This document shows positions 2,730 through 7,933 of a stretch of 17,786 bases of DNA, piece by piece (within the stretch, counting starts at the first letter, position 1; every line of letters begins with the position of its first letter). This stretch comes from a virus. The position numbers and the translations under genes were made by a program. The notes beneath the pieces are model-generated. The model ran no database searches. It was not told the DNA's origin and saw nothing but the letters and a program-made list of their open reading frames with translations. The stretch lies in the UHGV virus genome UHGV-0019208. The stretch is one strand, 5' to 3'.

Positions 2730-3763
2730 TGGGAAAGAGTAAGAAAAACCGCACTGCGGCGACGAATCAGATCCAGCATAAAAACCAGACTACAGCCGAA
2801 GCATTCAGCTTCGGCGATCCCGTTCCAGTTCTGGACCGCCGAGAATTACTGGACTATGTGGAATGCGTACAGATGGACCGTTGGTATGAGCCGCCCGTCA
2901 GCTTTGACGGACTGGCGCGCACCTTCCGCGCTGCCGTGCATCACAGTTCCCCGATTGCAGTAAAGTGCAACATTCTGACCAGTACCTATATCCCTCATCC
3001 GCTGCTCAGCCAACAGGCTTTTTCGCGTTTTGTACAGGACTATCTGGTATTTGGTAACGCCTATCTGGAGAAACGCACGAACCGCTTCGGTGAAGTTATC
3101 GCCCTTGAACCTGCGCTGGCAAAATACACCCGACGCGGGTTAGACCTGGATACCTACTGGTTTGTGCAATACGGCATGACCACGCAGCCGTATCAGTTCA
3201 CGAAAGGCAGCATTTTCCATCTGATGGAACCGGACATAAATCAGGAGATCTATGGCCTGCCCGGCTATCTTTCTGCCATTCCGTCAGCCCTGCTCAACGA
3301 GTCCGCCACGCTGTTCCGCCGCAAGTATTACATTAACGGCAGTCATGCAGGCTTCATCATGTACATGACCGATGCCGCGCAGAACCAGGAGGACGTGAAC
3401 AACCTTCGCAATGCGATGAAAAGCGCCAAAGGACCAGGTAACTTCCGCAATCTGTTTATGTACTCGCCTAATGGTAAAAAAGACGGTCTTCAGATTATCC
3501 CGTTGTCAGAAGTCGCAGCGAAGGATGAGTTTCTGAATATCAAAAACGTGAGCCGTGATGACATGATGGCTGCGCACCGCGTGCCGCCGCAAATGATGGG
3601 GATAATGCCTAATAATGTTGGGGGTTTTGGGGATGTGGAGAAGGCCGCGAAAGTATTTGTTATGAATGAGTTACTACCAATTCAAAAACATATTCTGCAA
3701 CTTAATGAATGGGCTAAAAAAAACATCATCTCATTCAGTGAATACTCTGTGGAGTGTATGTAA
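2729..3763 (+). CDS. Q: Portal (capsid vertex) protein, P2 gpQ family
   Basis: ATG at 2729 (the track began at the TTG 3 nt upstream). 344 aa, same size as P2 gpQ, translationally coupled to P. The last ~100 nt are markedly AT-rich. Confidence 0.9.
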   Translation: MGKSKKNRTAATNQIQHKNQTTAEAFSFGDPVPVLDRRELLDYVECVQMDRWYEPPVSFDGLARTFRAAVHHSSPIAVKCNILTSTYIPHPLLSQQAFSRFVQDYLVFGNAYLEKRTNRFGEVIALEPALAKYTRRGLDLDTYWFVQYGMTTQPYQFTKGSIFHLMEPDINQEIYGLPGYLSAIPSALLNESATLFRRKYYINGSHAGFIMYMTDAAQNQEDVNNLRNAMKSAKGPGNFRNLFMYSPNGKKDGLQIIPLSEVAAKDEFLNIKNVSRDDMMAAHRVPPQMMGIMPNNVGGFGDVEKAAKVFVMNELLPIQKHILQLNEWAKKNIISFSEYSVECM

Positions 3764-3773
3764 ATTGAATAAT

Positions 3774-3792
3774 GGCAGGTACTATACCTGCC
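3774..3792. terminator. Perfect 8-bp stem / 3-nt loop hairpin between convergent Q and the cargo nuclease gene; likely bidirectional terminator
   Basis: ggcaggta-cta-tacctgcc at 3774..3792, 10 nt after the Q stop and 7 nt before the stop of the minus-strand gene, with AT-rich flanks on both sides. Confidence 0.45.
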
Positions 3793-3799
3793 ACTGAAC

Positions 3800-5581
3800 T
3801 TATATTTTAGCAAACGTTTCTAACGCCAAGCTATCTGTTCTTTCTTTTATTAATGAATCATCCCATTTATGTTCTCTTGCTTCTGACTCACTAACAAACT
3901 CTGTAACTAATTTTAAATCAGATTTTTTATAAGATTCTATTTTTTTGTGCAACTCATAATTTTTGCAATCTTCATTAAGTGAAAAACAGAGTGGTAGTAA
4001 ATTACCAATCATACCCACGACTGACTCGTTAGTTTTGCTTTGAGATGATATGTGTTCCAAAGAAACTATATCCATTTTTAACTCTCGCGTCCCTCGTCTG
4101 ATACGTTCCAATTTGTCAAAAATATAAACAATCAACTTCCTTTGCCCAGACTTTTTATTTGTATAAACAATATTCTTTGAAAATGCTTGTTTGAATATAT
4201 TTTCTGAAGGCCCTTTCTGTGTAAAATAATCTAATGCGTCATTAATAACACCCTCAACATCTCTTTTATTTAATGCCTTATTCATTCTTACTGCTAATAC
4301 AGAATATTTTGCATCGATTCCAGATGGTCTTAGACGACATACTGCATTAAACTTAAAGTGAAATGACTCTAAGGACTTCAAACATTCTATCAGCATTGAT
4401 TGTGTAAGGGCTCTCGGTTTCTCTTTACGTTTTCTAAGTAATGAGAGTACAAATGGTCGAGGAATACTCACATTAAAAATCTCGAATGCTTTTAACGAGT
4501 TGTAAATTTCACGCTGATCAGGTTGAGGCCAGTCATCTGTATTTGGCGCTATTATTTTACAGTATAATTCAACATCATCATATAATTCGTTCAGAAATGA
4601 TGCTGATGACAATAAAGTATTCTCATCTTGAATCTCACGTTTAAAAGCACGATAAAGTTGATCTTCTCCAATATAATTATACTTAGAAAGCCACCACGTT
4701 CTAATATAATCAGCAATAGTGCTATTACTATCCCTAGACTCAATTTGAGTAACGATATAATCCCATTTTGTTTTTGCAATATCTACCGGATATGTTTGAG
4801 TGCAAGTTTGGAATACTTTATTCTTTATCAAATCAATTGAACTTAAGTTTATCCCTCGAGCATTCAACACTTCAAAAATATCATAAGCATCATCCTCCTT
4901 ACCTACAGATATTTTTACCAACTTCAAATAATTGGTAATCATTCTATATACAGCAGTCAAACAAAATATATAATCTTGGTTATTATAATGTTTTGCACCA
5001 TCTCGCAACAATGCAGAACAGAGTGATTTCCTCCCTAGTTTTCTAGAAAGAAAAATTCCTGCATAACTTATACGTACATCCTCTTCACAAGATTCATCAA
5101 CTTGATGCTCTTCGCGATCTTGATATTTTAACTTAAAATATGTTCTATCGCTATTTTTTGCTAATTTTTCAATAAATGTCTCACCATTTGAGGCTAATTG
5201 GCTTCTGCTAAATGTAGGACTCACAGTAACGATATATGTTTTAAATATATCATCCGCTAATGAATCTTGCCCTAAGGAACGCAATTTACGCGATATTAAT
5301 GAAAGCAATATAGTAATAACTGAAAATCGTTGTTGTCCATCAACCACTTCTAATACATCATCACTATCTGCTCCAGAAAGAACAATAGTCCCTATAAAAT
5401 ATTCTGAACACTCCAAGTTCTGTCCATCTTCATTCAACCTTATGTTTCTGACAATATCTTGCCATAATTCTTCAAGCTGAAGCTTTTCCCAACTAAACTC
5501 ACGTTGATTACGTGGAATAACATATCTTTGTTTTACAGATAGAATGTTTTTTATATTTAGTGGTGTTGCATCAAAATTCAT
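3800..5581 (-). CDS. DUF262 (ParB-like NTPase) + DUF1524 (His-Me finger nuclease) protein; GmrSD/BrxU-like type IV restriction or defence nuclease
   Basis: 593 aa. N-terminal YVIPRNQREFSWEKLQLEELWQDI...LEVVDGQQRFSVITILLS is the DUF262 signature, including DGQQR. C-terminal SLEHISSQ...IGNLLPL...N resembles the DUF1524 motif. RBS GAGGA 6 nt before the ATG (complement of 5581..5579). The gene is very AT-rich against a GC-rich phage backbone. Confidence 0.75.
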   Translation of the reverse strand: MNFDATPLNIKNILSVKQRYVIPRNQREFSWEKLQLEELWQDIVRNIRLNEDGQNLECSEYFIGTIVLSGADSDDVLEVVDGQQRFSVITILLSLISRKLRSLGQDSLADDIFKTYIVTVSPTFSRSQLASNGETFIEKLAKNSDRTYFKLKYQDREEHQVDESCEEDVRISYAGIFLSRKLGRKSLCSALLRDGAKHYNNQDYIFCLTAVYRMITNYLKLVKISVGKEDDAYDIFEVLNARGINLSSIDLIKNKVFQTCTQTYPVDIAKTKWDYIVTQIESRDSNSTIADYIRTWWLSKYNYIGEDQLYRAFKREIQDENTLLSSASFLNELYDDVELYCKIIAPNTDDWPQPDQREIYNSLKAFEIFNVSIPRPFVLSLLRKRKEKPRALTQSMLIECLKSLESFHFKFNAVCRLRPSGIDAKYSVLAVRMNKALNKRDVEGVINDALDYFTQKGPSENIFKQAFSKNIVYTNKKSGQRKLIVYIFDKLERIRRGTRELKMDIVSLEHISSQSKTNESVVGMIGNLLPLCFSLNEDCKNYELHKKIESYKKSDLKLVTEFVSESEAREHKWDDSLIKERTDSLALETFAKI

Positions 5582-5701
5582 AACTTATCCTCAGAGACAA
5601 CAAATTGATAATAATGTCCTATTCAAATGGCTAATGATATGACATAAAAAAAGAAAAATGCAATGTACTACAAGAATATCAGTAAACGTTTCTAGCGCGC
5701 G

Positions 5702-5720
5702 CTCGTATCCCCGCCACGCC
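5702..5720 (-). other. Candidate cos site (19-nt cohesive-end region) of the P2/186 type
   Basis: Minus strand reads GGCGTGGCGGGGATACGAG. As I remember them, the P2 and 186 cohesive ends are GGCGAGGCGGGGAAAGCAC and GGCGTGGCGGGGAAAGCAT, so the first 13 nt match the 186 form. Sits in a 533-bp intergenic region with flanking palindromes and repeats. Confidence 0.5.
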
Positions 5721-5743
5721 TGCCCACTTTATGCAGTGGTTTT

Positions 5744-7309: not shown

Positions 7310-7339
7310 GCCCCCATCAGAATGAACCCTACTGGGGGC
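7310..7339. terminator. GC-stem hairpin between convergent genes
   Basis: gccccca ... tgggggc, 7-bp stem with a 16-nt loop, immediately past the stop of the minus-strand DinI-like gene and followed on the plus strand by a T-rich stretch. Confidence 0.3.
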
Positions 7340-7347
7340 AACGTTTC

Positions 7348-7581
7348 TTAATGCAGCCAGCTATCGTCTTCCCACACCTTCTGCATAATTTTCATCACTT
7401 GTTTTCTTTCTTCGTCCAGTTGCAGTCCGGTCAGTTCCACACCGTTAGAGCTACCTTTACGGATACGAATTACCGCTTTGGGATACAGGGGGCGCAGATT
7501 GCGGTAAAGCTCGGATTCAAGGGCGTCCAGGGTAGATTGGCTAATCTTCTGCTCTTTATCGATCATTATTTCAATGCGCAT
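7348..7581 (-). CDS. dinI: DinI-family protein (SOS-associated RecA modulator homologue)
   Basis: From ATG (complement of 7581..7579) with RBS GAGGTGA: MRIEIMIDKEQKISQSTLDALESELYRNLRPLYPKAVIRIRKGSSNGVELTGLQLDEERKQVMKIMQKVWEDDSWLH. Compares with E. coli DinI as I recall it (MRIEVTIAK...DALAGEL...ILQETWE). The track ORF 7348..7653 carries an upstream extension. Confidence 0.75.
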   Translation of the reverse strand: MRIEIMIDKEQKISQSTLDALESELYRNLRPLYPKAVIRIRKGSSNGVELTGLQLDEERKQVMKIMQKVWEDDSWLH

Positions 7582-7591
7582 AAAAGTCACC

Positions 7592-7780
7592 TCAACTGAT
7601 GACATCCATTGAGCGGTTGTATTCGTGGGTTCTGATTTTTGCCATGAGTTCATCTGTCAGTTCAGAAACCCACTGCAAAGCCAGCCCCTTCTCTTCATCA
7701 CTACACTCACTAGCCGCTACAAGCTTAAGAAAAAAATCAATGCGCTGGAGCTTCAAAGACTCCAAAAAATAGTCCTGCAT
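7592..7780 (-). CDS. Small hypothetical protein (62 aa), first gene downstream of a LexA box; candidate SOS-inducible antirepressor at the position of 186 tum
   Basis: ATG (complement of 7780..7778) preceded by GGAGG with a 4-nt spacer. Product MQDYFLESLKLQRIDFFLKLVAASECSDEEKGLALQWVSELTDELMAKIRTHEYNRSMDVIS. The track ORF 7592..7882 extends upstream across the LexA box. Confidence 0.55.
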   Translation of the reverse strand: MQDYFLESLKLQRIDFFLKLVAASECSDEEKGLALQWVSELTDELMAKIRTHEYNRSMDVIS

Positions 7781-7823
7781 CTTTCCTCCTATGACACCAC
7801 AAGCAATACTGTATACATAACCA

Positions 7824-7839
7824 CTGTTTATATTTACAG
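7824..7839. promoter_or_regulatory. LexA (SOS) box, CTGT-N8-ACAG
   Basis: ctgtttatatttacag at 7824..7839 in an AT-rich promoter-like region just upstream of the 62-aa / DinI-like pair. A degenerate second half-site lies nearby (ctgtatacataacc, 7809..7822). Confidence 0.6.
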
Positions 7840-7933
7840 TATATAATAATCTTACTGATGTAAAACGTTTTTTTACGTTCATCAGCCTGATATGTCTGGT
7901 ATTATTAAGAGCACGAATTGTTAACCCGCGTAA

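Follow-up and report, generated by a model that had tools for sequence, protein, structure and literature searches.

Two cargo slots on either side of cos in the gpQ–gpA interval of a P2-like prophage

What occupies the AT-rich interval between the portal and replication genes of a P2-like prophage, and by which route is its content exchanged? We addressed this question in the virus genome UHGV-0019208, whose 17,786 nucleotides (hereafter the window) represent a P2/186-like prophage (Peduoviridae) in the reverse orientation of the P2 map. Matches to Phage_portal in gene Q (2726–3763, plus strand) and to Phage_GPA in gene A (7934–10348, minus strand) bracket a variable interval, which therefore lies at the Q–A position of a P2-like phage. 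An earlier note on this DNA had taken 3650–7933 for a single AT-rich cargo island straddling a candidate cos site and exchanged by recombination within conserved flanks. The variable locus at this position was reportedly first described by Odegrip et al. in 2006. As a defence hotspot of P2-like phages, bounded by gpQ (portal) and gpA (replication), it is described by Rousset et al. 2022 (PMC9122126), who put the number of such loci in Escherichia coli at about 18,000, by Vassallo et al. 2022 (PMC9519451) and by a 2026 survey in Nucleic Acids Research (PMC13586616). Our analyses indicate with high confidence that the stretch is this known hotspot, organized as two cargo slots flanking cos, and that its cassettes are swapped between related phages by recombination.

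Sliding 300-nt windows showed a G+C content (GC) of 0.51–0.60 up to about 3600 and of 0.30–0.35 from about 3650 to 7200, with a bump to 0.41–0.45 at 5550–6000 inside the AT-rich stretch. The best two-boundary maximum-likelihood segmentation delimited 3650..7267 (GC 0.343 inside, 0.55 in the left flank and 0.49 in the right), which raised the log-likelihood by 167 relative to a uniform composition, and the 3600-nt window of lowest GC in the whole sequence begins at 3651. The sharp fall in GC from the end of Q through the cargo, as originally described, is thus borne out for 3650..7267, except for a cos core (5695–5846) with a GC of 0.539; the AT-rich stretch consists of two blocks with this backbone-like core in between and is no single island. 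The left edge had been placed inside the 3' end of Q, correctly to within about ten bases: GC and GC at third codon positions are 0.519 and 0.62 in the Q body (2726–3640), and 0.333 and 0.37 in the last 123 nt of the gene (3641–3763). The right edge, formerly set at 7933, has to be moved to about 7267–7337, since 7338–7933, of intermediate GC (0.33–0.47), is conserved backbone in most relatives compared.

Judged from its sequence, the segment 5695–5846 is a P2-type cos site, with a G+C-rich 19-nt cohesive end, conserved flanks and a candidate cleavage site. Its left part, cosN (5695..5720), comprises an invariant GCGCGC followed by the putative cohesive end at 5702–5720 (reverse complement GGCGTGGCGGGGATACGAG), and aligns with the annotated cosL of P2 (GGCGAGGCGGGGAAAGCAC) and with that of 186; the reverse complement matches the P2 cohesive end at 14 of 19 positions and that of 186 at 15 of 19. 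Across the 16 loci of the cos alignment cosN is near-invariant and the adjoining GCGCGC is conserved. This alignment with annotated cohesive ends upholds the proposal that cargo lies on both sides of cos. The intergenic region that contains cos is 533 bp long and separates a gene for 593 amino acids from one for 352. The right part of the core (5721..5846) is GC-normal, 82–88% identical in all relatives and linked to the A-side module. Five of the 16 copies of TCATGC in the whole window, four direct and one inverted, are gathered in a 101-nt stretch of it (5743–5843). This part is probably the site of terminase recognition, the hexamers being candidate recognition repeats for the small terminase subunit. 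An open reading frame (ORF) of 59 codons spanning cos (5658–5837) was treated as spurious, since no family matched it and its extent includes part of the conserved core.

A survey of 5426 complete Escherichia coli genomes put the interval in the context of its relatives. Some part of it was matched in 1289 genomes, and in the loci inspected it was Q, the cos core and DinI–A that were matched; the whole interval was held by 47 genomes at 98.3–98.4% identity. In 14 loci with other cargo, homology to the window comes in three pieces: Q up to 3645–3747, the cos core from 5691–5695 to about 5846 (to 5890–5936 in a few of them), and DNA from 7225–7350 onward, which in one distant locus resumes only at 7461. 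The Q body is 92–95% identical among these 14 loci in spite of their differing cargo, and homology of the relatives to the window starts abruptly at 5694/5695. A spread of the other genomes revealed many different cargos, among them retrons (Ec67 and St85), SIR2 together with an ATPase, DprA paired with a phosphoribosyltransferase, and TIR, PIN, HNH, AIPR and DUF4145 genes. Hence variable cargo between conserved Q and A, as the earlier note supposed, is what related prophages display: they keep Q, the cos core and DinI–A around unrelated genes. A search of deposited phage genomes for the cargo of the window found none that carries it, only the cos core being matched. In P2 and 186 merely 167–177 bp and a terminator lie between the portal stop codon and cos, so that the Q-side slot is empty and all cargo (tin and old in P2, orf97 in 186) is on the A side.

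The direct evidence for exchange comes from two prophages (L001 and L018) that carry the same cargo on a different backbone. Divergence from them amounts to 3.6% in gene P, 4.7–5.9% in the Q body, 0.29% in 3641–5694, 0% in cos, 0.20% in 5847–7337, 2.2% in 7338–7933 (first mismatch at 7402) and 3.9–4.8% in A. A cargo block (3641 to about 7401) that differs by 0.2–0.3% between flanks that differ by several per cent must therefore have moved between diverged backbones. Mismatches to the same-cargo loci end at 3640 within Q; the co-transferred block thus starts at 3641, where the drop in GC begins, and the body of Q (2726..3640, plus strand) serves as the conserved flank for homologous crossovers on the left. 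Module exchange by recombination in conserved flanks, with a left breakpoint at 3640/3641, is accordingly well founded.

The two sides of cos are not bound to each other. The prophages of strains EC16 and J3 carry an identical left cargo gene with other small genes on the A side, and NCTC8623 combines retron Ec67 on the Q side with the same right cargo gene. Identity of EC16 and J3 to the window stops at 5725 (first mismatch at 5726), and homology to NCTC8623, at once near-identical, sets in at 5693–5695; the joint therefore lies within the 31 invariant bases 5695–5725, which hold the cohesive-end site. Among 77 loci, 24 pairs were at least 97% identical in the right half of cos; 22 of these pairs had the right flank in common, but only 3 the left. 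It follows that the left cassette stops 7 bp from the cohesive end and that the conserved, repeat-bearing half of cos goes with the right cassette. The two modules reassort independently, and the single island of the earlier note gives way to two modules around a conserved cos core. As a separate observation, the window from about 2700 to 5725, comprising all of Q and the left cassette, differs from the EC16 prophage at one position in about 3 kb; upstream, gene P is 3.1% divergent, and everything to the right of cosN is different. This mosaic pattern points to recent crossing-over both at cos and where P meets Q.

The left cargo module (3641–5694) is composed of the tail of Q, a terminator hairpin and a gene for a GmrSD/HEC-06-type type IV restriction enzyme. 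The Q tail (3641..3763, plus strand), that is, the last 38 codons plus the stop, is AT-rich and travels with the module. Each cargo type has its own nucleotide allele of these 38 codons, with a GC of 0.26–0.44, while the protein pattern VFVRNELxPLQKR..LN.W...I..F..Y is kept across cargo types and Q varies in length from 341 to 348 amino acids. Mean GC of the Q tail was 0.545 in eight loci without Q-side cargo, which have 156–257 bp from the Q stop to cos, and 0.387 in 64 loci with cargo (Mann–Whitney p = 3e-5); the sample consisted of one genome per species plus E. coli loci, the loaded set including the window, 17 hand-picked loci and 46 species-level ones, and the loci are non-independent. 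An AT-rich Q end with no variable cargo behind it was therefore not what the relatives presented: tails are AT-rich by cargo type, and GC-normal where the Q side is empty. Some loaded loci retain an ancestral-looking tail, so the boundary does not lie equally deep in Q everywhere; the cassette of the window is among those reaching deepest into the gene.

Between the convergent genes Q and GmrSD, a hairpin with an 11-bp stem (3771..3795), detected as a terminator-like site, is likely a bidirectional terminator; the corresponding position in P2 and 186 is occupied by terminators annotated as tQ and tW. The left cargo gene (3800..5581, minus strand) encodes 593 amino acids matching Pfam GmrSD_N (2e-32) and GmrSD_C (1e-11) and, over its full length, the PADLOC HEC-06 profile (7e-75). 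The protein contains DGQQR at residues 81–85, an EHISS nuclease motif at 509–513 (EH at 509–510) and GNLLPL at 526. It thus resembles the GmrSD family (Eco94GmrSD, BrxU, SspE), and the HEC-06 subgroup in particular, in joining an N-terminal DUF262 domain with DGQQR to a C-terminal DUF1524 domain that bears an (E/D)H nuclease motif. In HEC-06, mutating the DGQQR and EH nuclease motifs abolishes defence (bioRxiv 10.1101/2024.01.29.577857). Sequence similarity to the solved structures of the family is nevertheless weak (9jfl at 9e-12, SspE in the N-terminal part only), and unlike the HEC-06 gene of that report, which belongs to an Hma-embedded locus, the gene of the window sits in a phage hotspot.

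The earlier note speaks of this gene as a nuclease gene. The nuclease motif was indeed found; kinship with P2 Old was rejected, because only GmrSD_N and GmrSD_C pass the Pfam cut-off and there is no ATPase or TOPRIM match. The protein shares with Old, an OLD-family ATPase–TOPRIM nuclease, a similar size (586 amino acids in Old), the same hotspot and a predicted nuclease-type defence role, but it is unrelated in sequence and is encoded on the opposite side of cos from P2 old. The region upstream of the gene (5582..5694, minus strand), with a GC of 0.274, is cargo-specific and ends 7 bp short of the cohesive-end site.

The right cargo module extends from 5847 to about 7337 and contains a single defence gene, PD-T4-7 (6115..7173, plus strand), preceded by a promoter-like site at 5975..6004 on the same strand (TTGAAA-18-TATAGT, 10/12 matches). 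The old-tin messenger RNA of P2 likewise starts near cos and reads away from it. The product, of 352 amino acids, matches the PD-T4-7 profile PDLC04066 at 2.8e-144 over residues 1–342. It agrees in its identical length, its full-length profile match and its RelE/HigB-like fold with PD-T4-7 of Vassallo et al. 2022, a validated single-gene abortive-infection system that was selected against T4 and whose abortive-infection phenotype against this phage is reported for the UMB0103 gene (PMC9519451). The RelE/HigB-like fold expected of a RelE-toxin-like domain was recovered from a structure model of the protein, in which it aligns to just about 70–100 residues, and presumably these belong to the N-terminal half; for the C-terminal half (about 170–352) no relative could be recognised, and the gene stands in the window without a separate antitoxin gene. 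In an alignment of 40 homologues (28–86% identity), residues R112, T113, D114, W120, H124, H126, D159 and H163 were invariant (residues 43–163, N-terminal half), and on this conservation they are candidate catalytic residues.

Beyond PD-T4-7, a boundary zone (7174..7337) marks the return of homology to relatives with other cargo, at 7225, 7241–7252, 7275, 7338 or 7350 depending on the locus compared; the exact point is pair-dependent, and the change-point in GC is at 7267. The backbone block that follows (7348..7933, minus strand) comprises a DinI-like gene (7348–7581, minus strand, Pfam DinI 1e-22), a 62-codon ORF (7592–7780, minus strand, phrog_698), a LexA box with a single perfect match to CTGT-N8-ACAG (7824–7839), and the region downstream of gene A. 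These SOS genes had been counted as part of the island. Their sequence assigns them instead to the conserved backbone: 7338–7933 is present in most loci compared and is 2.2–3.0% divergent from the closest ones. Phage 186 has at this position the LexA-controlled tum, a single gene with a DinI-like part, whereas the window has a LexA box, the 62-codon ORF and a separate DinI-like gene; by analogy, the SOS unit of the window looks like a split version of Tum.

How such cassettes could work and move may be outlined as follows. Both cargo genes match profiles of experimentally validated defence systems and point away from cos. Each would presumably have its own promoter, active in the lysogen, and would shield the host and the resident prophage from other phages: the GmrSD/HEC-06-type enzyme would attack phage DNA that carries modifications, for instance the glucosyl-hydroxymethylcytosine of T-even phages, and cleave it in a nucleoside triphosphate-dependent manner, and PD-T4-7, a RelE-fold toxin-like protein aborting T4 infection, would act as an abortive backup. 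Cassettes would pass between co-resident or co-infecting P2-like phages via one homologous crossover in a conserved flank, in the Q body for the left cassette and in DinI/A for the right, with the other joint at cos. After cutting by the terminase, the two slots would become the two physical ends of the packaged chromosome; if they are such termini, one crossover, anywhere in the backbone or beside the slot, would suffice to reassort or replace a terminal cassette.

A more specific version of this scheme is one that we put forward tentatively, at somewhat less than even odds. It holds that the hotspot is a pair of swappable terminal cassettes of the packaged P2-type chromosome, that cleavage and re-annealing of cos, and not a second crossover, provide one joint of each exchange, and that the portal C-terminus is a tolerated, cassette-linked variable segment. 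Joining at cos would explain why the left cassette stops exactly 7 bp short of the cohesive end, why the half of cos assigned to terminase recognition travels with the right cassette and why linkage breaks within 31 bp. That the joint would arise through cleavage of cos, and not through ordinary crossing-over somewhere in the 31 invariant bases, is an indirect deduction.

Several points weigh against two cos-flanking slots with swapped defence cassettes as we read them. The bases 5695–5725 are the sole fully identical stretch of the cos region and hold zero informative sites, so that a joint made at cos and ordinary RecA-mediated crossing-over are indistinguishable there. AT-rich Q tails could have been acquired from a donor phage of low GC, or have arisen by local divergence beside heterology. 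The loci compared are non-independent; clonality is probable for many of the 47 genomes, and the E. coli loci were hand-picked. Defence activity and expression in the lysogen are, for the GmrSD and PD-T4-7 alleles of the window themselves, predictions from sequence. The promoter calls are consensus matches only; the scan upstream of GmrSD returned no convincing promoter-like site, and across the window such sites were rarer than in shuffled sequence.

Three other explanations of the AT-rich stretch deserve to be weighed. The block from 3641 to about 7400 is co-inherited in 47 genomes at about 99.7% identity, as would be expected of one island inserted as a unit by a mobile element, whether a transposon, an integron-like cassette or a site-specific recombinase. 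We consider such an insertion very improbable: 3641–7337 contains no transposase or recombinase genes, its edges lack terminal repeats, whether inverted or direct, its middle is taken up by a conserved cos core of the phage, and its halves occur apart, with other partners. The search for mobile-element signatures yielded no transposase and only short two-copy repeats, which are at chance level; a 23-nt direct repeat of 83% identity flanking GmrSD (3804–3826/5676–5698) was set aside, as about two of its kind are expected by chance in 4 kb of such a composition by our estimate. Alternatively, the low GC might be no mark of foreign cargo but reflect a functional constraint of the phage itself, for which H-NS binding or regulatory DNA near cos are examples. 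In its favour, the backbone SOS module (7338–7933) and several other conserved segments are also GC-reduced; yet AT-rich gene content is wholly different among close relatives, the functionally constrained cos core has a normal GC, and the DNA from Q to cos contains no AT-rich part in P2, 186 and eight other loci, so that we grant this explanation next to no probability.

The joint presence of the two genes could also be functional, GmrSD and PD-T4-7 forming one co-selected two-layer anti-T-even system in which restriction of modified DNA is backed by abortive infection and linkage extends across cos. Searched for alone among the complete E. coli genomes, GmrSD was found in 50 and PD-T4-7 in 48, with both in 47 (47/51); PD-T4-7 was selected against T4 according to PMC9519451, and PMC4437046 and PMC4619093 give T-even DNA as a target of GmrSD-family enzymes. 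Against these agreements stand the validation of GmrSD/HEC-06 and of PD-T4-7 each as a single-gene system, their occurrence with other partners, and their divergent transcription with cos in between. Furthermore, much of the co-occurrence is probably clonal descent, because the 47 genomes are alike in size and prophage position. A two-layer system of this kind is accordingly an unlikely reading, and the two independently exchanged slots on either side of cos remain the one that we favour.

The remainder of the window follows the order of a P2-like phage, with the terminase gene P (963–2729, plus strand) to the left of Q and a Dam-type methylase, CII, CI and an integrase beyond gene A. Further dips in GC (0.40–0.44) occur in the early region at 10500–11250 and 12000–12450. 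One overlaps the 5' half, encoding the N-terminal part, of the Dam-type methylase ORF, which has 309 codons in the window versus 285 amino acids annotated in relatives, and the second one overlaps with the DUF5347 gene; either dip may mark a further mosaic joint. The stretches 15358–16008 and 16128–16170 drew attention as well: between the P2-type integrase (14327–15343) and the attachment site lies another AT-rich slot for cargo, the third of the window. Its 216-codon ORF has a GC of about 0.28–0.35 and matches phrog_21256, of unknown function, with zero matches in Pfam and PADLOC searches; in relatives, genes at this slot encode an HNH endonuclease or an anti-phage dCTP deaminase. The attachment site, just downstream of this ORF, is a 3' fragment of ssrA only (GGACGCGGGTTCAACTCCCGCCAGCTCCACCA), calling of transfer RNA and transfer-messenger RNA genes across the window returned none, and a second, P4-type integrase follows (16191–17564).

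The phenomenon described here is already known, and only the fine-scale anatomy of the breakpoints is an incremental addition. The interval of the window has the flanking genes, the adjacency to cos and the highly variable, defence-rich content that the literature attributes to the P2 gpQ–gpA hotspot, from which it differs in nothing essential. PMC9122126 describes the hotspot and speculates that cos ends serve as recombination substrates, and PMC9519451 reports four new defence systems at this position and validates PD-T4-7; exchange by cos ends plus one homologous crossover has been proposed for the hotspot, as it is here for the window. In the passages retrieved by keyword, these papers and PMC13586616 treat the interval as one hotspot at the level of genes. 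The same passages make no mention of its division by cos into two slots, of a left cassette boundary 7 bp from the cohesive end, of the asymmetric linkage of one half of cos to the right cassette, or of an AT-rich portal tail (the last 38 Q codons) tied to Q-side cargo.

Genome annotations label the two cargo genes only as "DUF262 domain-containing protein" and "hypothetical protein". Both probably act against T-even phages, which would be relevant to the choice of phages for therapy against strains carrying such a prophage. For the engineering of P2-like phages, the breakpoints suggest a design rule, namely replacement from about codon 306 of Q to 7 bp before cos. Overall, the two slots, the joint at the cohesive end and the carried-along portal tail lend sequence-level support to the published speculation that cassette exchange in P2-like phages may be driven by cos ends.

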